From: Octopus vulgaris
Taxonomy: Eukaryota
DNA: 64,000 bases
Assembly: GCA_951406725.2 (NCBI GenBank)
Contig: OX597820.1
Coordinates: 62,000,001 to 62,064,000 of the forward strand
Direction of reading: 5' to 3'
Under the pieces are notes generated by a model. It worked only from the letters and a program-made list of their open reading frames with translations, had not been told where the DNA came from and did no database searches. Position 1 is the first letter of the stretch. The number at the start of each line of letters is the position of its first letter. The translations under genes were made by a program, and so were the position numbers. This document shows positions 994-62,477 of this stretch, piece after piece.

Positions 994-1338
994 TTAATAA
1001 GGGTGAGAGAATTAGATACTAATTTAATAGTATATTTATTCCACACCAAGTGGCCTAGTTATGGTAAAATCTGGCGTGTGATTGAGTGGATTTCATCCAG
1101 ATAGTCTTGGCTGACGAGCTACAAATGGATTTTTGTAAGTAATATTACATTTAATTCATTAATAGCGAAACAATTGTCCCAAAATAATCTGTATTTTTGT
1201 TATTTTTTATTTGCCCTGTCCGTGTGAGCTAACAGTCGTACTGGCTTTCATGGGAAACATGTATTTTCGTGGTTGAAACCTTTTGGATTAACTGGTGCTA
1301 GAGTGAGCAATATAGTGACCACTCTCTTATATTTATTT

Positions 1339-1340
<2 letters not shown>
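990..1340. mobile_element. Small (TA)n-flanked hammerhead-bearing element (Penelope-like repeat or retrozyme-like)
   Basis: About 350 bp between TA tracts. Starts AGGGTGAGAGAATT...CACCAAGT, like the elements at 16.66 kb and 24.70 kb, and contains a hammerhead. Confidence 0.55.
1107..1182 (+). ncRNA. Type I hammerhead ribozyme with an intact core
   Basis: TTGG-CTGACGA(1111-1117)-GCTA...TAGC-GAAA(1167-1170)-CAATTG-TC^CCAA. Stem I TTGG/CCAA, stem II GCTA/TAGC with a long loop, palindromic stem III, GUC cleavage triplet. Confidence 0.8.
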
Positions 1341-1396
<56 letters not shown>

Positions 1397-3064
1397 AGAT
1401 ATGTGTGCGTATGTGTGAGTGTATGTATGTGTGTGAATGCGTATGTTGCTGTGTATGCATTATAGTTATCATGCATAAATGTAGGGGTAATTTAGCACCA
1501 GGAAAAGAAGAATTAGGAAAAGGAAAAGGAACTGCCAGTAGAAAGAGGAACAAAAAGGAGAATTAGAAAATAGTAATAATAATAATAATAATAATAATGA
1601 TAATAATAATAATAATAATAATAACAACAGCAACAATAATGATGATGATGGCTATGGGGAAGAGGATGATGATGATGACGACGGTTGATGTGGATGATAA
1701 TGATGATGTTGATGATGGTGGTGATGATAAAGATGGTGATGATGCTGATGACGACGACGATGATTACGAGAGAATGAAGAGAAATTACAAATGACTAAAA
1801 AAGAATAGAAAATATTCAATATTGAAGAAAACTCTAGAAGTACGATAATGATAAGTAGAAAGAAAAATGAAAATACCGAAAAGAAGTTATACTCGAACAA
1901 GAAGATGGAGAAGGGCAACGATAAGGAGACGTTGGTGGAGGAGTAGGAAGAGAAGAAGAAAGAGAAAAAGAAGTGGAAGAAAAGAGAAACAAAGATGGAA
2001 ACTAAAAAGCGACCCCTATTTCTACCGATCTAAACCAACATACAAACACACACCGTAGAAATAAATAAATATGGAGAAACTTAGTAGGTGTGTCTGGAGG
2101 AGGAAGAATATGAAGAATGAAAACTAATGAGAAAGAATAACAATGGGAAGAAAAAGAAGAGGAGAATAATAACGGATGATGATAAAAAAAAGAAAGCTGG
2201 AAGTTGATAAAGAAGTAGAGAAAAGGAAGAAAATAAAGAAGAGGGGAAAAGACGAAGAATATTTTTTTTTAAATAGAGCAAAAGAAAGTACGGGAGAATT
2301 AAGAGAAGCTGAATGAAAGAAATTGAGAAATTATGGGAGCAAGAACGAGTGGAACGTCATGAAGAGAGGAGGTGAAGGAGAAATGAAAAATAAATAAATA
2401 AATTAAAGAAAAAAAGCAAGTTAAACAAAAGAAAACATGGTTGTTATGAGACAATGGCAGTTGGTCATTTTGTCTGGAATTTCGCATGTGGAATGCACAT
2501 AAGAATAGTAGAATTTGTCGTTAATAATCACGAACGAATAACGCCATCAACTTCTCTTCACACCCCTAAATTAAAATGGTGTATGAGGGGGTATATTGTC
2601 GACACTAAAAATTCATCTATCATTGAATAATATAAAATGCGGTTTTGTTCAATTTTTCTGATTATTTCTGCGGTTTTTCTCTTTTGTATTTGTGTTGTTT
2701 GTGCTTGAAGCTAGCTTGTGGCTGTTCGTTTGATAGTGTGCATGAATTTATCTTTACGGGTTTGTGCGTATGGGTATATAATTATATTTGTGTGAATATA
2801 ATTGTGTGCGTGTGTGTGAGTATAGATGCTTCTATATCGTTCTCGTCTGTAGAGACGCCTAAGTAATACAATATGTTGAAACCTCGCCTAAATTAAATTG
2901 CGGAATTGGAAATAAAGTAAATTGGTGTTTGTAACGAACACACAGAATGAGCGCATGCATATATATATCGTGGACGTATGCAAATCCATATATTTGCATT
3001 CTTATGTATATATGCATACACGTACAGAGTTGCATACTAACATATATGCAAGTATATATATGTA

Positions 3065-3125
<61 letters not shown>

Positions 3126-3251
3126 ATATGTGTATACACATGTGTATGTGTATATATGTGCATATATATATGTATATATGTGTGTATTTATATATGTATA
3201 TACATATGTAGATATATTTGCGTATGCATATGTGTATATGTTATATATATT

Positions 3252-3285
<34 letters not shown>

Positions 3286-3320
3286 TATATGTAGATATAT
3301 TTGCGTATGCATATGTATAT

Positions 3321-3368
<48 letters not shown>

Positions 3369-3582
3369 TATACGGACTTATATATTCATATATATATACA
3401 TACTCGTATACAAACATTCATACAGGAATACGGATACATATGTATGTATACGTATAAACAGCACGCAAACACGCACACAAACAAACAAGCGTTACATACG
3501 AAACACACCAGCAGATAAGACACATGTACAGATATATACACGTATCTACGAATATATAAGTGCCTCTGTGTATGTGTGTTTG

Positions 3583-4074
<492 letters not shown>

Positions 4075-4237
4075 TGCGTATATATTCGCGTCCATGTGTG
4101 TATGTGTGTGTATGTGTGTGTGTGTGTGTGTGTGTGCGCTTGTGTGTTATGTGAAAGGGAGAGGGAAAGAAAGAGCGGGAGACTGACTGAGTACATTTGG
4201 TTGACAAAAATCACTTCAAATAATCACTATATTCAAG

Positions 4238-4307
<70 letters not shown>

Positions 4308-4971
4308 TTACTGGACCGCTGAGCGTATTTCTGCCATCGAGCAAGCTCTGTAATAAGTTTACCAATTCGCGTTAGCAGTGAGAATCGAACAAGAGACAAC
4401 TCAGAATCTTCTACATTAAATATGCCAGTGACAGTCAAGCCACGTGATATTAAAATTCGTGAAATTTCATTGACGTTCGTCATATCCCATATTCTCCATT
4501 TTATATTCATTCACAAAGAGAGCGAAGGCAATATTTGGAACTGTAAATATAGTTATTCGTCAAAATACATTAAGAAAATGAATTCTGAAGTTGTTTGCTT
4601 CGAGAGTGCTGGAACTGTTTTTTTGACCCGACTACACTCACCCAACACAAGCACATACATATGCACACGCACTCATACACACATATACACTCACACATAT
4701 ATACATGCATACATACACAGTTTTAAAACATTAGTTTTATCAAGCGCTGTCCTAGCTACTTCGGGGTTCATTTTCTTAATGTATTTTGAACGAATAACTA
4801 TATTTACAGTTCCAAATATTGCTTTTACACTGTTTTTCAATGTACTCTTATAAGTTAACTGCCATTGAATATGGTCGAGACGAACATCTATAAAGTTTTA
4901 ACAAATCTTAATATCTCGTGACTTGAATATTACTTGTATATTTATTCTGGATAAATTCACGTCCAGCGTAA
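4308..4971. repeat. Inverted repeat pair or MITE-like element
   Basis: Core arms 4528-4591 and 4758-4822 are near-perfect reverse complements; weaker similarity extends outwards about 150-200 bp. Confidence 0.7.
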
Positions 4972-5399: not shown

Positions 5400-5990
5400 C
5401 CCACTATTCCCGGGAAGATCTCGGGGGTTGAGTCGTCTGGCACCTCCTCCATAGGGTCCTATGAGAATCAGTCGTCATGACAATTTCTGGCTGAATTCCT
5501 CAATCATGACAAACTGAGACTATGATTATTACTCAATTATCTCGTTCTTGGTCTACCCCAAGGTACCCTGGCGTTTGGCTCGGATCGAAGAATCCGTCTT
5601 GTGATTCTTTCCTGCGACAATTCAGTCACATGTTCGTATGTAGAAGCTGCAAACACACGATGTCAAGAAGCAGCGGCTCCACCAGCAGAGACTCCCTGAT
5701 CTCCGAGCTACGTACCGTGTCGAATGAGGTTACATTGGAGATCTTTCGGAAGGACTCCATTTCGACAGCCTTGTTCGCGATCGTAATCCTTTCCTCGTTA
5801 TCCAACATTTATGACCGTAGGTGAGGAAAGGTACGAAAACCAAATTGAAAATAGAAAACTTGGCTTTGTTGTCCGCCTCTCCTCTTCTGAGGATCGAATG
5901 CCGAAGCTGTTGCATTACAGTGCAAGCATTTGCAACTCTAGCACCCTATTCAGCATCGTAAGTACAGCTTCGAGATACTTAAACTTCCCT
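5400..5990 (-). mobile_element. RTE-clade LINE 3' fragment, degraded
   Basis: KFSIFNLVFVPFLTYGHKCW and EMESFRKISNVTSFDTVRSSEIRESLLVEPLLL resemble the RTE post-RT region. Confidence 0.75.
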
Positions 5991-6169
5991 TCAGTGATGT
6001 TCTTGTAACACGATTCTCTGATATATGTTCTTTCAGCTGGCGAAGATTTATTGTTTGCTTTCTCTGGTTTGTGTACCCTCAAGTGGTCAATATGTCTTAA
6101 ATGAAATCAAAATGAATTATTAAAATATCTATGATTTCCTTTCGATGCGTCTCGTTTGAATTTTTTGTG

Positions 6170-6760
6170 TTTGTTGCGGTTCTTTTCAAAGTACATGAAG
6201 ACATTAAAAATATTATTTCTCTATAATGCGCCATCAATTGCGTACATTTCTCCACTTTCAGATAATACAGTTCTTGTATTATAATATAATTTTCTAAGAG
6301 GTATTTTCCCCGAATATAGTTTTTTATAAAATAGACGTTTCGGTATTCTTTCATTTTTCATACGAACTACATGGCTTGCCCACCTTAGTCTGTTACATAA
6401 CAAGTGAATCTCTATACCTTCAGAATCTACTTACAAAAGGCCTCAGAATAACTCACATAGTCTCTCCAAGATAGATGCAGTATTTGTTGACAACACTATT
6501 TGCTGAGAACTGTTTACGGGATTATGAATATAACATCCATATTTTGCAATCATAGAGAAAAGCAGATATTATGTATGCTTTGAAAATAGATATTTTAATG
6601 TAAACTTACTTTTATCTACCGCTGGAACCATAGAGGAGACTGCAATTTTGTAAAAGATATCTGCCTTCTATTTGCAATTTCGTCTGTAAGGTTTACAACC
6701 CTGTTAAACGCGCTGTCGAGATATTTGAAGGCAGATATGAATTTCAATATTTTACATTAT
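6170..6760 (-). mobile_element. RTE-clade LINE fragment, degraded
   Basis: RLRWASHVVRMKNERIPKRLFY is a typical RTE C-terminal motif. Confidence 0.7.
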
Positions 6761-7014
6761 ACCGTTAGTTTAGGATCCATCTGAAACTTTCCAAGTCGAG
6801 GCTCATAAAGAATAACAGTTTTAAGGTTTATTGTGAGGTTTAACAAGTTGCGTGCGAATGAAGTTTTATTCGTAAGACTTTAAAGATATTATTCATTGTA
6901 TGCGACAATAGTCATCAGCGTACAAGAGATATCAGATCGAATATTCATCCCTTCCTCCCTCTCTCCTTCCCTCCTTCCCTCTTTCCCCCCTCTATATGTA
7001 TGTATGTATGTTTT

Positions 7015-7045
<31 letters not shown>

Positions 7046-7457
7046 TGACCTTGTCCCAAATTTTGGTATTGAAAGTTACCCCAACAGCAGAACGCGGCGC
7101 CACTGCATGGTGCCAAAGATCCCAACATCACCATCATAATACAGGACCAGTTACTGCAACAGCTTCGGTTTCAGGGGACCACAGCTCTTTAATAACCTTC
7201 CTAAATGCCTGAGAGACCTGCATGGTGTGGATGTGGGTTTCTTTAAAACTAAACTGGATCTCTTCTTGTCAGGGGTTCCACATGAACCTACCTCTCGGCA
7301 GGAAACACAGATGCGGGCAGCTGCGTCGAACTCAGTTGTTGACCAAGTGCCACGTATCAGAAGTGGTTTCACATACTAGTGTAGCTCATTCAACGGTGGT
7401 GTCCCAGCATGGCCGCAGCTTTTGGGCTGAAACGTTTTTAAGGATTTAGGGATTTAT
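7046..7457 (+). mobile_element. CR1/L2-like LINE 3' end
   Basis: Manual translation gives NSFGFRGPQLFNNLPKCLRDLHGVDVGFFKTKLDLFLSGVPHEP. A short 3'UTR contains CCAGCATGGCCGCAG...CTGAAAC. Confidence 0.75.
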
Positions 7458-8877
7458 ACATACATACACACGATTAGAGTTCTTATTCTGGTCAACCTGT
7501 TAGTCAGAAGAGCGTGTGTAAAGTCTCACTTCATTAACATTTTTCAAATCGTGACATAATGCACCTAATGTAACAAGGATTCCATTATTTGATGTTCACT
7601 CAGTTTTGAGGCGGTTATACTCCGTTTTTGTGTTTAGATTTTAAACACAGCATAATAATGTTTTCGTCTACTAATTGCGTGCATCATCTCAAGTCTTAAG
7701 TTTTTTTGTACTATTTCTCAACGTTACATATGTCAGATTTCACTGTACAATATACCTCGGATTACATTATCCAATGTCTTCTTATTTTTGAGACGTTAGG
7801 ATTGTGGCTCTTATTTCCAGTAAGCCGAGCGATATCGGAGAAGCACTATTTTTTATTGCCTCTTTTCATTCTTTTGTATTATATTCACTCTTCCTATCCG
7901 CAATATGGCGTAGTCGTTTCTGCTGTGCTATTTTCTTTATATTGTAAATGTGCAGGTGTTTGCGTGTGAAGAATTCTGTAATGCTATTTTCATTGGTTTG
8001 TGGGAGTTATGCTTTCTTTTTTCTATGTGGTCGGTTATTTTGCTTTCTTTTCAGTGTGTTATCTTTTCCTGTGTTTTGTATATTTCTGTTCCTGGGATCT
8101 TATTGTTTCTTGTTTATTATGAATCTGCATTTCATTCGACAATGTGTTTCAGTTTAGTTCTTTTATATTTCCGTTTATTTCTTCGCCAGATCTCGTATTT
8201 CTCTTTTATGGTGCTAGCGCGTGTTGCTTATAGTATGGCTGTCTAATATAAGTGTAACACTTCTAGGCATTATTCTTTGGGTCATTTTTTTTCCTTCTTG
8301 CTTTCGTTTTAGTTTGATGGACGCTAGCAATAGGAAGCGAGTATGTTTGTTATGAATTGACCTTTTGAGAGGACAATACAGCTGATGTTCAAGTTAAACA
8401 TGCTTTGTAGCGTTATTACATTAAACTTACACTCATAAATCCTGGCTCAGCAACCACTGTTTTGTTGATGATAAAATTGTTGGTCATGATTGCTGTATTG
8501 ATTAGCGTTGATTTTGTTATACGGCGATGCCTTTTCATTGGTTTCTGCTTCCTGTTATTACTTGTCTCTTGTGATCATACCTTATTATTTTGTATAGCGA
8601 ATAGAATAATTTATGCGCATAATCAACTCAATGAATACGTAAATTAATTGTTATATGTAAATACTGAAATTCCGCTTGATTTGAATTCCTCTTTTCAGTT
8701 ACGTTGCTGGATTGCTATCTCTTGCCTTACGGAGATTTATGCTTCATCATCAATTGTTAACATTCAACTAGGAGCTCTTGTTTCCTATGTATACAAACAC
8801 ACACGCGCACAAATTTATATATAAAGATATGTATATGTCTAAGCATATGTACATATATGTATGGATGCATGGACTAA

Positions 8878-9134: not shown

Positions 9135-10100
9135 AGTATGCTCTTCATAATGCCAACGTAGAACTTCCGTTTGCATTTCCCGATTGGTAGAGGGTCGTGA
9201 GCGTTTGGCGACATTTCAAATACCAAGCATCGCCCTTCGCATGAGTCGTGAAAAACCACATCTGACAGAAGTAGACTAAACCTTACCTCTGGTAAAGAAT
9301 TGTGGGGATACCGCGGCCTCAGCGTATATTTGTGCGTCATCAGCTACGAAATTCTCTGTCATTTACTCAAATGAGTGAGTGACTGGCAACAAATGGAGCG
9401 CCTAAACAGTGTTATAGTCCCGTCTCCAAAAGGGGAAGAGCAGATATCTCAGTCTGTTACTCTATGAACTAGGACAAAGTACGAAAGGCAATCGGTGATA
9501 GATGACGAATGCGACGTAGATGTTTTCCTTCTCTGTCTAACCGTTCATCAAGAATCGCTTTCTATCGTATCATTTCTGGATCACACTGAAGACCTTGTTC
9601 GTTGATTTGTCTCAGTTCTTCACCTGATTATCAGGTGCACAATAGGCTCCGAGAACTATAACCCTGGTATGACCGTCTCGTGCCTCACTGATGGACGGCA
9701 CGGACCCATCTCCTCACCAGGTGCGGAGCTGTAAGCCTACTGACTTTACTTTGGTTGATTTGGGCTCCTGTCACTGTCTCATCATACTCTCCTAAAGCCC
9801 TGATGTTGAGCTCAGTGTGCATCGTGTTTGACACTATTTGACGGTGACCTCGTCAGAATATACCGACACGGATCTCTACATCTTTACTCGCGTGGGAACC
9901 AACTCAATGCCACTAATTTCCGCAATAGTAGCTCAAGGGCACGTACACACAGAAGAGATGAGAGGAGGAAGCAAGAGAGAATGACCGCCCGATGCTGAAT
10001 GGTTCCTATAGGTGAATGTTCACCTTAACTACCGTGTAGATATCACTGTACATTGCGACTATCCAACCGAAAGCAGAAGCCAGTATTAATCGATCTTGAA
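9135..10100 (-). mobile_element. Old, degraded Tx1-like LINE RT region
   Basis: Manual minus-strand translation gives LELLLRKL...VSVYSDEVT...TVTGAQIN...RRSICCQ...LMTHKYTLRPRY...KFYVGIM. This is colinear with LEPLLRKL...VSAYADDVT...AVTGAKIN...RRSICCQ...AFYRGLV of the young copy, with many stops and frameshifts. Confidence 0.75.
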
Positions 10101-12538: not shown

Positions 12539-12924
12539 ATCCCTCCTAGTATAGGCACGAGGCGCGATATTTTGGGGGAGGGGTATAGTTGATTACATCG
12601 ACCCAGTACTTAACTGAAACTTATTTCATCAACCCCGAAAAGTCGACCTCGGTAGTATTTGAACTCAAAATGTAAACCAAGAAGAAATACCTATTTCTTT
12701 ACTACCCATAAGGAGCTAAACACAGAGGAGACAAAAAAGGATAGACAAACGGATTAAGTCGATTACATCGACCCCAGTGCGTAACTTGTACTTAATTTAT
12801 CGACCCCGAAAGGATGAAAGGCAAAGTCGACCTCGGCGGAATTTGAACTCAGAGCATAACGGCAGACGAAATACGGCTACGCATTTCGCCCGGCGTGCTA
12901 ACGTTTCTGTCAGCTCGCCGCCTT
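12539..12924 (-). mobile_element. SINE family B dimer (Tx1-tailed unit joined to a TAA-tailed unit)
   Basis: Head reverse complement AAGGCGGCGAGCTGACAGAAACGTTAGCACGCCGGGCG with a B-box-like GAGTTCAAATT. Junction at 12691/12692; flanked by (TAA)n. Confidence 0.85.
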
Positions 12925-19917: not shown

Positions 19918-19969
19918 GCACATACATATACATCAGTACATACACACTAACAATATTTTACATATTTGT

Positions 19970-20216
19970 TATTTCTTTACTGCCCACAAGGGGCTACACA
20001 CAGAGGGAACAAACAAGGGCAGACAAACGGATTAAGTCGATTATATCGATCCCAATGCGTAACTGGTACTTATTTAATCGACCCCGAAAGGATGAAAGGC
20101 AAAATCGACCTGGGCGGAATTTGAACTCAGAACGTAGCGGCAGACGAAATACCGCTAAGCATTTCACCCGGCGTGCTAACGTTTCTGCCAGCTCGCCGCC
20201 TTAAGCTGGCTGCCTT
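19970..20216 (-). mobile_element. SINE family B (Tx1-like tail) with an 18-bp TSD
   Basis: Full unit bounded by the direct repeat AATATTTTACAT(A/G)TTTGT at 19952-19969 and 20217-20234. Confidence 0.88.
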
Positions 20217-23856: not shown

Positions 23857-24682
23857 TTGGGTTGTCCGGAAAGTTCATGCCGTTTTATAGCAGCTTACCT
23901 TTCGACTTATTTTAGAATATGGTTGAGTCCATAAAATAGAATTTAACTACACCTCCATTTAGAGCACAGTTTAAGCTATCTTTTCGTAGAAGAAGGCTTC
24001 CGTCCCTATAACCTGTGTTAATTCTGTAGCCCTTTAAAATGGAAGATACGAAAGTTCATTTTCGGCGCTTGATGCTTTTCTTTTTCCGTAAAAGGAAAAA
24101 TGCCTCACAAACAACCAAAGAAATATGCGCAGTTTACGGTGAAGTTTCTTTATCAGAAAGAAATGTACGGAAGTGGTTCGCATGGATCCAAGAGCTTCTC
24201 CCAAGTAACCAGACAATTCTGAGAAATACTACAGACAACTGGATGAGTTAAAAGCAGCAATTCAAGAGAAACGTCCAGATTTGGCCAACAGGAAAGGTGT
24301 TGTTTTCCGGCATGATAATGCAAGACCGCACGTTTCTTTGGGAATCAGACAAATATTGTTGCAGCTCGGCTGGAATGTGTTACCCCACACTCCAATTCAC
24401 CAGATATTGCTCCTTCGGATTTCCACTTATTCAGGTCTCGGCAGAATAACCTTAATGGTAAAAATTTCAATTCCTTGGATGACGTTAAAAGATACTTTGA
24501 TGAATTCTTTGCCATGAAACCACGCCAATTCTGGGAAGAGGGGTTTTTCAAGTTAAAGGAAAGATGGAGACGCATAGTGCAACAAATTGGTTCCTATTTG
24601 GTTGATTAAAAATGTAATAGCAAGTATTTATTGACCTTTTTCTTTCTTTTAAAAATCGGCACAAACTTTCCGGACAACCCAA
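23857..24682 (+). mobile_element. Mariner DNA transposon (mellifera-subfamily-like), internally deleted, 826 bp
   Basis: 26-bp TIRs TTGGGTTGTCCGGAAAGTTCATGCCG / CGGCACAAACTTTCCGGACAACCCAA (2 mismatches) with TA flanks. Transposase pieces MEDTKVHFRRLMLFFFRK..., NRKGVVFRHDNARPH and SPDIAPSDFHLFRS. The central part, including the WVPHEL region, is deleted near 24190. Confidence 0.93.
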
Positions 24683-27734: not shown

Positions 27735-28260
27735 CGTCTGTTCGTATATGTGAGCACGTGAGCTTGTGTATGATAGAACTAAGACATAATTGAGATTCTG
27801 TACCAATTCAAACCCGGCATACACATAAACATATCTTTTATGGTTATATTCATACACACATATGCACCAGACACATAACCCCCCCACACACACACACACA
27901 CATATGCGTACGCACACCACCACAGTCACTCTCACACGCACACGGCACCAGTCCGCCTGTTTAGACGTCAGTTTAGATTAGTTAAACAAAATTACATTAA
28001 AATTGGGATTTTATTTTGATAACCTGATCACTTCCTACCATTCTCATCTTTACATTTTTACATTTCCAAACTTACATACTTCCCTTTTATTTAATGTCTT
28101 TCCTTTACACTTAACACAGCCACAAAATATTGTATTTATGTAGTTTTGTTCACTTCAGTAATATATTTCTCTTTGATTTTCTACTTTTTGAATTTCTATG
28201 CTGTTCCACCATATATTTCCCTCCTTTAACTCGTCTGTCTGTCCGTCCTTCCATCCACCC

Positions 28261-28335
<75 letters not shown>

Positions 28336-28338
<3 letters not shown>

Positions 28339-28597
28339 TTTTCCTCTCCCCCTTTTTTCCTCTTTTTTCCCTTTTTCTTTTTTTCTTTTCCTTTTTATCC
28401 TTTTCTTCCCTTTTTTCTTTTTTTCTTTTTTCTTTTCCTTTTTTCTTTCTTTTTTTCTTTTTTTTGTTCTTTTTTCCCTTTTACGATCCCTTTTGATCGA
28501 AAACCTACGCCACCTTTTTTTTTTCTCCCCCAAAAGAAAAGCTCTACCTTGTAACTTGTCCCATCTGTGTGCAGCCCTGTGTGGCCAATAAAGAAAC

Positions 28598-28598
<1 letters not shown>
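28336..28598 (+). mobile_element. Tx1-like LINE, 3'UTR-only copy (about 0.26 kb) in a (TATC)n array
   Basis: Contains TTTACGATCCCTTTTGATCGAAA...GAAAAGCTCTACCTTGTAA...GCAGCCCTGTGTGGCCAATAAAGAAAC, the same 3' end as the other copies, with TATC on both sides. Confidence 0.88.
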
Positions 28599-28675
<77 letters not shown>

Positions 28676-28678
<3 letters not shown>

Positions 28679-29196
28679 AACTTCTTCAAGTATTACTTGA
28701 AGAGGAAAGTGAGAGTAGAGAAGCAAGTTTTGTCTAGTGAATGTTTTAAAAAAAGATGGGTGAATGTAGCAAGGATGGCACGTATGAATGACGAAGCCAC
28801 CTTGACTATGATTCTATGAACCGTAAAAATTAATACAGAGAGTTGCTTATTTGCAAAAAAAAAAAAAGAAATATGACATGTGACTTCATTGACCGAGGTT
28901 ACCGTGGTCTTTTCCGTAGGATTTTCTTTCCACGGGTAAACCTCACCTGTCCTCCCCTTTACACTTCATATTGACATTTCTGTGATAACGATCCCTATTG
29001 ATCAATTTTTTTCCTTTCCCTTTTTTTCCTCTCCCCCACTTTTTTTTATTTTATTCCCCTCTTTTTTGTCCTCTTTCTTTCCCTTTACGATCCCTTTTGA
29101 TCGAAAACCAAACCCCCTTTTTTTACCCCCAAAAGAAAAGCTCTACCTTGTAATTTGTCCTGTCTGTGTGCAGCCATGTGTGGCTAATAAAGAAAC

Positions 29197-29198
<2 letters not shown>
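28676..29198 (+). mobile_element. Tx1-like LINE, 5'-truncated copy (about 0.52 kb) in a (TATC)n array
   Basis: Begins ATCAACTTCTTCAAG (3-nt ATC microhomology with the repeat), carries the ORF2 end and 3'UTR, and ends GGCTAATAAAGAAACAT before (TATC)n. Confidence 0.9.
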
Positions 29199-29247
<49 letters not shown>

Positions 29248-29435
29248 GTCTGTCTGTCTGTCTGTCTGTCTGCCTGTCTGTATGTGTGTCTGTCTGTCTG
29301 TCTATCTGTATGTGTGTCTGTCTATCTGTCTGTGTGTCTGTGTGTCTGTCTGTCTGTTTTACTGTCTATCTGACTGCCTGCCTGCCTGTCTGTCTATCTC
29401 ACTATCTCTTCACTTGTCTATCTGTCTGTCTGTCT

Positions 29436-29477
<42 letters not shown>

Positions 29478-29534
29478 GTCTATCTGTCTGTCTGTGTGTC
29501 TGTGTGTCTGTGTGTCTGTCTGTCTGTCTGTCAG

Positions 29535-29603
<69 letters not shown>

Positions 29604-30685
29604 ACCGCGAGTGTCGCGTTGCTCTCAAGCAACTCTGCCGTCCTGGGTCGACCTTAAGTGACTTCAACACAACCAAAGCATTCTATAGGGGTTTAGTGGA
29701 GGGGAGGTACGACGACGAGCTCGGGGCGAACCTGGACGTCGACGAGGAGTACCTGACCCGTCCTGTTCAGGACGACTTTCGGGCCAGGGCCCATGGACAA
29801 CTTCCAGAGATCCCTGGCCTGGCAGTGCTACCGAGAAGCGCTACCCGTTCGGGATAAGCTCTACAGACACGGCTCGAGAAACACGGGGCCGACCTGCCCG
29901 AGATGCGGTCAGAGCGACGAAACCGTTCTGCACGCACTCGTTCAGTGTCCAACAATTTCCGACCTGTGGGCTTATGTCGAACAACTGCTGTCACGTGTGG
30001 GACGAGTCGGTTTATCAGCTGAGTCTATCGTCAATATTGTCACGCCTCCTTCCTTCAAACGGGAAGGAAGAGCTATTTTCATCATCCTTGTGGCTATGGC
30101 GAAAGAATGTATCTGGTGGACGCGTCTGAAAGGATTGGAGACAAACACTTTCCTCTCTGGTCAATCTCTCATCAACTTCTTCAAGTACCACTTGAAAAGG
30201 AAAGTAAGAGTAGAGAGGCAAGTTTTGTCTAGCGAATGTTTTAAAAAAAGATGGGTGAATGTAGCAAGAATGGCACGTATGAATGACGAAGCCACCTTGA
30301 GCATGATCCTATGAACCCAGAAATTGAAAAGAGATAGTTGCTTATTTGCAAAAAAAAAAAAAAAAGAAATATAAAATGTGACTCCATTGACCGAGGTTAC
30401 CGTGGTCTTTTCCGTAGGCTTTTATTTCCACGGGTAAACCTCACCTGTCCCCCCCTTTACACTTCATATTGACATTTCTGTGATAACGATCCCTATTGAT
30501 CAATTTTTTTTCCTCTCCCCTTTTTTTTTAACCCCCCCTTTTTTTTGTCCTCTTTGTCTCCTTTTACGATCCCTTTTGATCGAAACTCCCCCTTCCTTTT
30601 TTTTTTCTTTAACCCTTCAAAAGAAAAGCTCTACCTTGTAATTTGTTCTATCTGTGTGCAGCCCTGTGTGGCTAATAAAGAAACA
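29604..30685 (+). mobile_element. Tx1-like LINE, 5'-truncated copy (about 1.08 kb) in a (TATC)n array
   Basis: Near-identical to 51475-52592. A 1-bp insertion near 29761 causes a frameshift. ORF 29793-30314 encodes the CCHC finger and the intact C-terminus. TATC repeats flank both sides. Confidence 0.92.
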
Positions 30686-31032
30686 TATCTATCTATCTAT
30701 TCTATGTGTGCCAATTTATCGGTAATTTTCCCTCCTTGTGCGTTTCTAAGCACAAATCTGTACGTGTAAATCTTCTAACACATAGATACATCTCCACATA
30801 TACACACACATTGTCAACAAACGCCGCCTGTTAATGCATTCGCAAACATACACACACACATATATACGCGCAACAATGTTATGCAAACTAAGAAACGGTT
30901 TAGAAATGAAAACCGTGAACCGCCCACAAAACCGCCATCTCAAGCACCCGTCACCTCCACCGTACAATGACTGCACCTCCCAGCCCCCGCATGCACCCCA
31001 CCACTACCACCACCACCACCACCACCACCACC

Positions 31033-35128: not shown

Positions 35129-35477
<349 letters not shown>

Positions 35478-36635: not shown

Positions 36636-37229
36636 ATTCTTTTGTACTCTAGGCACACGGCCCGAAATCTTTGGGGAGGGGGGCAGTCGATTAGATCGAC
36701 CCCAGTGCGTAACTGGTACTTAATTTATCGACCCCGAAAGGATGAAAGGCAAATCGACCTCGTCGAAATTTGAACTCAGACGAAATACCTATTTCTTTAC
36801 TACCCACAAGGGGCTAAACACAGAGGTGACAAACAAGGACAGACAAAGGGATTAAGTCGATTACATCGACACCAGTGCGTAACTGGTACTTAATTTATCG
36901 AACCCGAATGCTTGAAAGGCAAAGTCGACCTCGGACGGAATTTGAACTCAGAACGTAACGGCAGACGAAATACCTATTTCTTTCTTTACTACCCACAATT
37001 CGATTTAGGGTTAAACACGAAAATGAGAAGACAAACAAGGACAGAAAATCGGATTAAGTCGATTATATCGACTCCAGTGCGTAACTGGTACTTATTTAAT
37101 CGACCCCGAAAGGATGAAAGGCAAAGTCGACCTCGGCGGAATTTGGACTCACTCCGAACGCAGCGGCAGACGAAATACTGCTAAGCATTTCGCCCGGCGT
37201 GCTAACGATTTTGCCAGCTTGCCGCCTTA
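36636..37229 (-). mobile_element. SINE family B trimer
   Basis: Three cores in tandem with identical junctions GAAATACC|TATTTC at 36789/36790 and 36974/36975. Confidence 0.85.
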
Positions 37230-42521: not shown

Positions 42522-43010
42522 TTATCTTTGCGCAGCTTCTGACACACCACACCTTTTCAGTCGGAACTCCATTCTGGTATCAGTACTGAAAGTATACACC
42601 GAATCAATGAGGGAACTGACTTTACCATAAAGTTTGAGGTCATCCATGAATAACAAGTGGTTGACTTTTTGTTGGCAGCTTTTGAATACATACTCAGCCT
42701 TTGCTATCCTCAGAATCAGTCTTAGTGGTATCATGCACAGTACAAATATCAGTGGGGACTGGCAGTCCCCTTGGAAGATGCCGCTCCTGATTTCTATTGT
42801 CTCTAAACTTCTTCCATATGCTGTTAGTTTCGACCTCCACTTCGCCATAGCTTTTCCAAGCAGTCACTCAACATTCGATGGAATACCAAATAGATTTATA
42901 TATTCCATAATAAAAGAACTTGGGATCATATCGTACGCCTTACGATTGTCGATCCATGGCATGGCTAAGTTTGTTTTCTTCCTCTTGCAGTCTACCAGGA
43001 GTTGATCTTA
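42522..43010 (-). mobile_element. R4/Dong-like LINE RT fragment
   Basis: GIFQGDCQSPLIFVLCM and VNHLLFMDDLKLY motifs; adjacent to (TAA)n. Confidence 0.85.
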
Positions 43011-50345: not shown

Positions 50346-52674
<2,329 letters not shown>

Positions 52675-54375: not shown

Positions 54376-54482
54376 ATATATGACGGGATTCTTTCAGGTT
54401 CCGTCTAACAAATCTCAAGACGTTTTTGTCAGCCCAGGATTCTAGTAGTAAACACTTGCCCAATGTTCCTTCTAGTGGGGCT

Positions 54483-55910
54483 GTAATTTGGAAGGATGAT
54501 AGATTTCACACACTTTTGCTCAACCTCTGCAACCACACACTTTCCACCTTTGTCGCTCCAAAGATTTGGCACCAATCTCAAATCATTCCAATACCCAAAA
54601 AAGGCGATTTATCCCTCGTCACCAACTACAGGGGTATATCTCTAATGTCAATTGCTGCAAAACTGTACAACAAACTGATCCTAAATCGTCTTGTCCTTTT
54701 TGTTGAACCTTTGCTCCGAAAGAACCAAAATGGATTCAGACATGGACGCTCAACGCTGAGCCAGATACTATGCCTGCGCAGACTTATTGAAGAATCAAAA
54801 GCATTTAATCGCGATCTTGCAATGGTATTTGTAGACTTTTCTAAAGCGTTCGATTCTGTAGATAGGTACATGATGTTTGAAATCCTTAATCTCTATGGGA
54901 TACCAGACAAAATTATTTCTGCCATCAAGGTCCTCTACACAGATACGTCTTCAACCATCTTAACCCCTGATGGAGAAACATCATCTTTCTCAATCAAAGC
55001 CGGAATACTGCAGGGAGACACACTCGCACCATTTCTTTTCATCATTGTTGTTGATTATGTGCTACGTATGTCAGTTGTTACCATCTCTGGCAAGAGCTTT
55101 GAAATAAAACCAAGAAGAAGTTCCAGACACCCAGCTGAGTACTTGACAGACACTGACTTTGCTGACGACATCGCTCTTATCAGTGATTCTCTCTTCAATG
55201 CCCAGTCTCTTTTACAGTCTCTTGAACAAGCCTCAAATTGTGTAGGTCTTTACCTCAATGAGGCCAAAACTGAATACATAAACAAGTGCCTGTCCAACAG
55301 TGATTGCATCATCCATACTCTCAACAGTGCGCCTTTAAATATGGTTTCTGATTATAAATATCTTGGGTCATACATATCATCATCTGGAAAAGACTTTCTA
55401 ACTCGAAAGGGTATGGCCTGGTCAGCCTGTAATGACATGCATAAGATCTGGTCATCAAATCTAAGTAGAGACTTCAAACTTGAAATATTCAAAGCCACAG
55501 TCGAACCAATTCTACTATATGGCTCAGAAACCTGGACGTTATCAAAGAAGCTTGAGAGGCGGTTGGATGGAACCTACACTCGCCTCCTTATGAGAGCTCA
55601 AAATCTCTCGTGGAAGCGCCATCCAACCAAAATGCAAATATATGAGAAATTACCACCTGTGTCATCCCTTGTGAAAGGTAGGAGAGTCCAGTTTGCTGGA
55701 CATTGTTGTAGAGCTGAAAAAGAAGTAATTTCTACTCTTCTCCTCTGGAAGCCATCTACTCGCAATACCAGAGGGCGCACACTCTCCTACCCTGATGTAA
55801 TCTCCAGGGATACAGGCATCCAGCAACAGGACCTCCGTAATGCTACGATGGACCGTGAAGTCTGGCGTAACATAGTAAATTCCATTGTCTCGACCACGGT
55901 CGAACAATGA
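54483..55910 (+). pseudogene. RTE reverse transcriptase ORF, N-terminally truncated (no endonuclease)
   Basis: About 475 codons without a stop. The listed 494-aa ORF start lies in the host SINE sequence and is not a true start. Confidence 0.85.
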
Positions 55911-57229: not shown

Positions 57230-57462
57230 AAGGCGGCGAGCTGGCAGTAACGTTTGCATTCCGGGCGAAATGCTTCGCTGTATTTCGTCTGCCGTTACGT
57301 TCTGAGTTCAAATTCTGCCGAGGTCGACTTTGCCTTTCATCCTTTCGGGGTCGATAAATTAAGTACCAGTTATGCACTGGGATCGATGTAATCGACTTAA
57401 TCCGTTTGTCTGTCCTTGTTTGTTCCCTCTATGTTTAGCCCCTTGTGGGCAATAAAGAAATA
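57230..57462 (+). mobile_element. SINE family B (Tx1-like tail), full length
   Basis: AAGGCGGCGAGCTGGCAG...TAGCCCCTTGTGGGCAATAAAGAAATA, within TA-rich repeats. Confidence 0.88.
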
Positions 57463-57480
57463 AATACATATATATATATT

Positions 57481-61624: not shown

Positions 61625-62477
61625 TTTATCTTCTTAAGCCTTCCTGAAGAAATGACAAGTACCGCTTGTCAGACGGTCCATTTGCTGTCAGCATCATTTG
61701 CGTGGAGGACTTGGCATGCTGTGGTTGAGGATGCGCAGATATGCACTGAGGCTGCGATATCTCCAAGCAATACCTTAACGGTAAGCAGGTGTGGCCCCCG
61801 TATCTTGAGCGCACTTTTCCGCAGCTCGTCTCCTCGACAGAGCTACAGTCCTGGATCAGGCATATACCGAGACAGGGCGCTTGGCACCTAGAGTGTCTCC
61901 ATGCGCTCACAGTCCTCGGCCAGTCGGGCAATGCGGTCGGTGGAAGTTCCACCTTGGAGTTCTATAGGGGATAAGTAGAGGGCAAGAGCGACGACATACT
62001 GTGAAAAGTCCTGGGTTTCGAGGGGGATCAACTGGTCGGTCTCTTCCGGAGGACTTTCGGGCTGGGAACTATGGATAACTTCTAGAAATCTGTGGCCTAG
62101 CAGTGCTGCGGCTTTTTCACCTGAAACGAAAGTGAGGCTGGAGAGGGAGGTACCGTTACCCAGTAAGTTCGTTGAAAGGTGGGTGAACGTGGCAAGAATG
62201 ACCCGCGCGAATAGGCCTATCTAAGTGTGTATCTGTAGGCTGGATGGAAAGGAGAAGAGAGGGTGCTTTCCAGAGGAGCCGTTGGTGTTAAGGGTCCAAA
62301 GTGCGTCAAGTCTCTTTGGTCAGCTTACGGTAGACACCTTGCACCTATTGGGGAAGCATATTCTTGATTTAATCTTTTTGTTAATCGTTGTGCTTGAAGG
62401 ATGTTTACACGTTTACTCGTCTGTGTATCATCCTCTTTGCTTTGTGTTCGACACTGTTGGCCAATTAAACAAAGAAT
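61625..62477 (+). mobile_element. Diverged Tx1-like LINE fragment (sister subfamily), internally deleted
   Basis: Translates to VPLVRRSICCQHHLRGGLGMLWLRMRRYALRLRYL and FPQLVSSTELQSWI...WHLECLHAL, homologous to the 50.5 kb element. Has stops and a deletion near 62108; a different 3'UTR is followed by (TTA)n. Confidence 0.85.

Follow-up and report, generated by a model that had tools for sequence, protein, structure and literature searches.

The window, by which we mean the whole stretch of 64000 bases analysed here, consists of AT-rich, microsatellite-dense eukaryotic DNA without any N. At 28.2-30.7 kb it contains three 5'-truncated 3' ends of one non-LTR retrotransposon, all lying on the + strand within a compound TATC/TGTC tract. 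This tract starts with a host microsatellite (28233..28336, +) of degenerate TGTC/CATC units, which passes into pure (TATC)18 at 28264-28335 and forms the 5' flank of the first copy, A (28337-28597, +; 261 nt). Copy A comprises 3'UTR only, has its 5' end at the first poly-T tract of that 3'UTR and owes its length partly to an expanded pyrimidine tract of its own (private, 28351-28482). A spacer of 81 bp, consisting of one base and pure (TATC)20 (28598..28678, +), leads to copy B (28679-29196, +; 518 nt), which retains the last 46 codons of ORF2 and the 3'UTR. It is followed by a 407-bp compound TATC/TGTC/TGCC/TGTG tract (29197..29603, +), which includes pure TATC runs of 12, 10 and 16 units and is non-repeating overall. 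Its make-up matches that of the compound arrays at 14.5 and 63.7 kb, which are empty, and it is presumably a resident genomic microsatellite. Copy C (29604-30684, +; 1081 nt) contains the C-terminal part of ORF2 with a zf-RVT domain (Pfam E 1.5e-8) and the 3'UTR, and is disrupted by a 1-nt frameshifting insertion at 29761. The host microsatellite ends on the right with one base, (TATC)3 and a partial unit (30685..30700, +), and the host site measures about 608 bp when the three inserts are subtracted. The initial annotation had described three co-oriented copies of about 0.26, 0.52 and 1.08 kb with TATC/TGTC repeats between them, different truncation points and three diagnostic 3'UTR motifs, and all of this agrees with the sequence: the 5' ends within the stack are three different ones, and the motifs occur in A, B and C, respectively. 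Its view of the locus as a single TATC array needs refinement: the tract is not pure, the spacer between B and C being compound TATC/TGTC/TGCC.

A fourth copy, D, lies outside the stack (50518-52591, +; 2074 nt). Its 5' end falls inside the reverse transcriptase (RT) domain (RVT_1, E 1e-16; zf-RVT, E 6.7e-8), its reading frame is interrupted by a premature stop at 52077, and TATC adjoins it on both sides, as (TATC)42 before its 5' end and (TATC)20+22 after its 3' end. Copy C belongs to the same subfamily as D, and copy B to a different one. All four copies end with the same 11-nt terminus, which bears AATAAA; one or two junction bases and then (TATC)n come next, while poly(A) is absent from the 3' ends of all four; the junction bases are identical in C and D and distinct in each of A and B. 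An exact search for this terminus on both strands of the window returned no copies beyond A, B, C and D. Within its 3'UTR poly-T tract, copy D holds a private (TTTA)n microsatellite (52456-52499), and the private repeats of D and A are new repeats born inside young insertions. The copies of the stack are probably dead passengers without host function.

The element appears to be a Tx1-like LINE, its strict membership in Tx1 resting on the names and the domain order of its relatives. It is clearly of the non-LTR type: RVT_1 is present in D, and the four copies share a common terminus, have four different 5' ends and show neither LTR nor TIR. Among solved structures, the RT of the element matches LINE-1 ORF2p best (E 2e-17) and R2 next, whereas proteins named "transposon TX1 149 kDa" are matched at E 1e-44 to 1e-46, the LINE-1 value coming from a far smaller database. 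Among the longer relatives, which combine APE (PF03372) with RT and zf-RVT, two are named "transposon TX1 149 kDa protein". RT and zf-RVT of this Tx1 domain set are present in the window, while APE was recognized only in relatives that are 41-47% identical; neither the four copies nor the nearest relative (P0001) contain an endonuclease domain. The nearest named protein comes from Argonauta hians (64% identity at 99% query coverage), which makes an octopod host probable. In a maximum-likelihood tree with 41 rows of about 300 aa each (copy D, an RTE-like ORF of the window and 39 of the 240 fetched proteins), D groups with the Argonauta protein and three others (100/99), and this group nests in a clade of 17 rows which includes a protein of the cuttlefish Acanthosepion (100/99). 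In this tree, whose base is unresolved and whose rows include no curated Tx1 or L1 reference, the clade is separate from the proteins of fish, alligator and frog. The protein matches included no identified Kibi or Koshi sequence. As judged from the relatives, the full-length element would carry an ORF1 and an ORF2 with an APE endonuclease.

The TATC repeats represent the insertion target and not merely a tail made by the element. All four 5' junctions abut 16-42 sense TATC units, and the 5' flanks of A and D, neither of which could be the tail of a neighbour, both consist of at least 16 such units. By chance, TATC would be found upstream of both A and D with a probability of about 1e-4 to 3e-4 at random sites and of 0.01-0.04 when the available sites are restricted to microsatellite DNA. 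A role of TATC as tail only is ruled out by the upstream repeats of A and D, which have no preceding element, and by copy C, which has only three units downstream; this three-unit run also indicates that the element lays no long tail. In this window both flanks are TATC in four of four copies, as compared with the >20% of flanks used as a criterion in PMC4494074. A fixed register of the 5' cut is not seen. The junctions lie at different phases with 0-3 nt of microhomology to the array (3 nt in B, 0 in C; unmeasurable in D, the longest copy), which is common among truncated LINEs. Two further Tx1-like fragments, both older and disrupted and located at 61640-62212 (+) and 9383-10069 (-), are 69% and 64% identical to D at the nucleotide level; neither has a TATC flank, and a (TTA)n tract lies about 260 bp downstream of the former.

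The relationships among the copies were assessed from pairwise substitutions counted in alignable complex blocks. Copies C and D differ at 7 of 391 positions, as compared with 27 of 404 between B and C and 22 of 391 between B and D, so that C is about four times closer to the distant D than to its neighbour B, as the initial annotation had noted for the copies at 29.6 and 50.5 kb. In the 90-nt blocks which include A, the values are 5/90 for A-B, 4/90 for A-C, 4/90 for A-D and 3/90 for B-C. The many 3'UTR substitutions reported before amount to 3-5 differences per 67 nt among the stacked copies in the terminal block (0/67 between C and D); the remaining 3'UTR differences are mostly length changes in low-complexity pyrimidine tracts. 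Over the last 136 gap-free columns of the four copies, some of which are of low complexity and of unsure alignment, eight informative sites support AB|CD and none AC|BD or AD|BC, while private sites number 11 in A, 4 in B, 1 in C and 0 in D. The proposed pairwise comparison of the 3'UTRs thus bears out that A, B and C form no group of their own among the four copies, since C joins D. A and B group against C and D, yet A is as far from B (5/90) as from C (4/90).

Among the coding differences, nine bases in the final 46 codons of B depart from the state common to C and D, and six of them are synonymous where 18-26% would be expected (P 0.002-0.012, or 0.014-0.056 if counted as 5/9). This bias suggests that the differences arose largely in working lineages and not by decay after insertion, and that B and C/D descend from different working lineages. 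Between C and D, 710 coding bases contain four substitutions and one indel, and three of the four substitutions are synonymous, which is a weak bias (P 0.04-0.075). An octopus substitution rate of 0.0036 per My has been given (PMC13282606); at this rate, and as rough upper bounds that presuppose an octopus host, C and D would have split at most about 2-2.5 My ago, and B would have separated from C/D at most 8-10 My ago. The different truncation points, the closeness of C to D rather than B and the synonymous bias of B together make it well supported, as far as sequence comparison goes, that A, B and C are independent insertions from different source lineages and not products of tandem duplication. 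Neighbours in a tandem array are expected to share ends and to be mutually closest, whereas here the ends are not the same, and the nearest kin of C is D, which lies at a distance of 20 kb. The earlier claim of different source elements is therefore upheld with respect to independence (by the truncations, the 8:0:0 distribution of informative sites and the closeness of C and D), but three unrelated sources are not indicated, as A and B group together; the sources would number at least two and probably three (A; B; and C, as kin to D).

It had also been proposed that the target is regenerated after each insertion and that empty arrays remain available. The empty array at 35129..35477 (+) is real and contains 83 pure TATC units, a target size equal to that of the occupied loci. 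The regeneration of the target is true in the trivial sense that the repeat survives the insertion, but a special hot-spot or regeneration effect is unnecessary. The window contains eight TATC loci with 358 pure units, of which 79 belong to the site of the stack, and the probability that at least three of four copies fall into one of the eight loci is 0.057 with equal weights, 0.127 with weighting by length and 0.140 with 20 units per insertion removed, i.e., 0.06-0.14 as computed for this one 64-kb window with n = 4 copies and uncorrected for the large number of windows that were scanned. Stacking is within chance for a TATC-targeting element and is unremarkable as such: the repeat remains a target on either side of an insertion, and stacking therefore follows from target size and high local occupancy. 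The TATC arrays of the whole window amount to 1364 bp on the + strand and 32 bp on the - strand, with seven of the eight loci on the + strand (P = 0.07, not significant); this skew may reflect transcription or the orientation of SINE tails.

The reading that we regard as likely is that a Tx1-like LINE family inserts by target-primed reverse transcription into (TATC)n and has done so three times at this site, at different times and from at least two lineages. The family would insert into (TATC)n/(GATA)n in one fixed orientation. By analogy with its relatives, the APE endonuclease would nick the (GATA)n strand, and the junctions suggest that a read-through RNA with a few UAUC units would anneal to the nicked strand and thereby prime the synthesis of cDNA from the end of the element, which would explain both the absent poly(A) and the identical junctions of C and D. 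Reverse transcription would usually stop early, and the 5' end would then join the array with 0-3 nt of microhomology. A compound array of about 600 bp, which is among the three largest TATC targets of the window, would have taken three hits at different times, two of them into the left pure run and one near the right end. Annealing of read-through sequence to the target has been reported to raise the insertion of R2Ol (PMC6530143); the mechanism by which such elements choose microsatellite targets is described as "not well understood" (PMC3812793).

A variant of this mechanism, which we consider rather doubtful, is that target choice depends mainly on pairing between the read-through RNA tail and the DNA and not on a sequence-specific endonuclease. 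The target would then be inherited with the source locus, would switch easily and would feed the growth of TATC arrays. Both an endonuclease and RNA pairing as source of the specificity appear compatible with copies that lack the endonuclease. The pairing variant agrees with what is seen in a sister lineage, which has the same poly(A)-less AATAAA end but stacks into long head-to-tail arrays at a short spacer which is not a repeat; if the variant were true, targeting would be changeable through the RNA tail alone.

The other explanations of the stack differ in how the copies came to lie next to each other. The same sequence picture would result whether the copies were inserted serially on one chromosome, were united by allelic recombination or were joined in the assembly. 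The copies might have inserted independently on different alleles or chromosomes and have been united later by unequal crossing-over or gene conversion within the TATC runs, which we regard as improbable. Long pure TATC runs beside every copy offer homology for such out-of-register exchange, and the resulting copies would be indistinguishable from those of serial insertion, but extra events are needed which are not required by the sequence, and serial stacking is within chance. An assembly artefact, in which separate loci were joined through their TATC repeats, seems slightly less probable still. The copies are indeed split by simple repeats of 81 and 407 bp, the pyrimidine tract of A is irregular, and homopolymer lengths differ between the copies; against this, the window contains no N, repeats of 350-420 bp are resolved as would be expected of a long-read assembly, and the compound spacer between B and C, being non-repeating, could anchor reads.

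Even less credit is given to a local tandem duplication, followed by deletion and divergence, which would apply at least to the pair A-B. The adjacency of these copies and their eight common informative sites against C and D would fit, but their 5' ends lie more than 300 nt of element apart, their divergence of 5/90 is not below that of A-C (4/90) and is above that of B-C (3/90), and the private sites in the 136 columns (11 in A, 4 in B) also speak for separate histories. For copy C, tandem duplication is ruled out by its identity to D. The least probable of these explanations is a single event with template jumping, in which the RT copied the RNA of C and then those of B and A, the spacers being read-through tails (3' transductions). 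LINE RTs are capable of template jumping, and the head-to-tail order on the same strand as well as the junctions without poly(A) would agree with such an event. It would, however, require three differently diverged source RNAs at once, the 407-bp spacer between B and C looks like the resident compound arrays, and copy D, which stands alone and involved no jump, is flanked in the same way. The serial insertion of a TATC-targeting LINE, as set out above, is thus preferred.

Several other elements are found in the window. A SINE-like dispersed repeat is present at 19960-20100 (-), 57332-57463 (+), 12692-12822 (-) and 36790-36920 (-) as well as in shorter pieces. Over its last 42-50 nt it has about 80% identity with the 3' terminus of the element, which suggests that its partner may be a Tx1-related LINE; none of the four copies listed is followed by TATC. 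A conserved 3' stem-loop common to the element and the SINE-like repeat was considered and rejected, since the single folds are weak (-5.2 to -8.2 kcal/mol) and the consensus fold of eight sequences gives only -0.99 kcal/mol, with two-sided changes in none of eight pairs. An uninterrupted RT ORF of 508 aa at 54384-55910 (+; RVT_1 E 4e-30, weak DUF6451) belongs to another LINE, which is 5'-truncated with (AC)n/(AG)n repeats upstream and which we take to be RTE-like by its motifs. A frame of 102 aa at 24209-24517 (+) presumably corresponds to the C-terminal part of a mariner/Tc1 transposase, which it resembles, and a frame of 113 aa with RT-like motifs at 42522-42863 (-) is assumed to be a fragment of a further LINE family. 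ARAGORN detected no tRNA genes in the window.

Tandem arrays of more distant relatives were found by an alignment-based scan of genome contigs, which yielded 62 loci encoding relatives at 32-48% identity (not those at 64-84%). These loci lie on contigs of two records labelled as bacterial MAG, 61 of them in CAXXMW01 (L001-L061), and are probably derived from eukaryotic contamination. CAXXMW01 contains head-to-tail arrays of a full-length, two-ORF Tx1-like LINE with a unit of about 6.4-6.9 kb and up to 11 copies found per contig. The proteins of this array relative are mostly 41-42% identical to that of the window, and its ORF2 of 1161 aa contains APE, RT and a weak zf-RVT. At locus L020, ORF2 occupies 1234-4719 and the next ORF1 5861-7555, the latter with a weak match to zf-CCHC (E 0.048) below the cut-off. 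Over 1.5 kb at 58 of the 62 loci (L056, L058, L061 and L062 being left out), identity amounts to 99.2-100% among copies of one contig and to 92.4-100% among those of different contigs. The termini of the relatives bear AATAAA without poly(A) in all 52 located cases, those of the other 10 of the 62 loci not having been located. The terminus of the array relative is followed by a short, TSD-like spacer, which recurs where three of the arrays end (L023, L027 and L045), and runs of TATC/GATA or TTAGGG are absent from the vicinity of the relatives at all 62 loci. As judged from these sequences, the wider lineage stacks readily, but with another target, and TATC targeting is not conserved across the wider clade, as the nearest relatives with DNA context (41% at the amino acid level) lack TATC/GATA. 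The arrays of the MAG-labelled contigs are homogeneous, in contrast to the divergent and truncated copies of the window, and are possibly more interesting than the TATC stack itself.

Neither the insertion into microsatellites nor the class of elements concerned is new, and both microsatellite-targeting Tx1 elements and sequential tandem insertion have already been published (PMC4494074); the stack shows no new mechanism. Kibi with (TC)n and Koshi with (TTC)n in teleosts and crocodilian Tx1 elements with (TTCC/TTTC)n represent microsatellite-targeting members of Tx1 (PMC4494074; PMC3812793). Kibi, Koshi and the crocodilian Tx1-1_Crp group are APE-type Tx1 LINEs that likewise prefer pyrimidine-rich microsatellites, whereas the element of the window is set apart from Kibi and Koshi, as they are described, by its (TATC)n target instead of (TC)n or (TTC)n and by its cephalopod host. 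Tandems of crocodilian SINEU-3 and Tx1-Mar arise by sequential insertion through Tx1 machinery (PMC4494074) and resemble the stack in their head-to-tail order, their sequential origin at one preferred target and the target sequence between the copies. Their target is, however, a Mariner-N4 transposon with visible TSD, as opposed to a microsatellite in which a TSD is invisible. Dimers of the Drosophila non-LTR elements jockey, DMRT1B and R1 with distinct 5' truncations have been read as double insertions (PMC5932611). They also form tandems of tail to truncated head at a preferred site, but belong to other clades and have short-TSD spacers as compared with the 80-400 bp of repeats in the window. 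The microsatellite targets given in the available text of a review are ACAY (Waldo), AC (MinoAg1), TC, TTC and TAA (Dong), a list that does not include TATC/GATA (PMC3812793). Waldo, MinoAg1 and Dong are microsatellite-targeting non-LTR elements as well, the target of Waldo being also a tetranucleotide, but they belong to other clades and use other repeat units.

An expansion of L1-Tx1 elements has been described in coleoids (PMC8967140), and Octopus vulgaris is reported to have 13 L1-Tx1 families of recent activity, with 421 near-full-length insertions (PMC13282606), so young Tx1 copies are to be expected in this octopod genome. The family of the window may already be contained in the O. vulgaris consensus library of the latter study. 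The available text of these two papers does not mention target sequences, and that of PMC4758252 yielded nothing on the family. In the literature search, which did not cover Repbase, no report was found of a Tx1 element targeting TATC/GATA or of the target specificity of a cephalopod Tx1. The sole fact that is possibly new is thus the (TATC)n target of a cephalopod Tx1 family, and Repbase may already record it.

If the family were (TATC)n-specific genome-wide, it would extend the microsatellite-targeting Tx1 elements to a new target repeat and to a host among the molluscs, and it would explain interrupted TATC/GATA loci of cephalopods, which make poor markers. The stack itself illustrates serial insertion cleanly and would readily serve as a polymorphic marker, and it could make testable whether endonuclease specificity or annealing of the RNA tail governs the choice of microsatellites by these elements.
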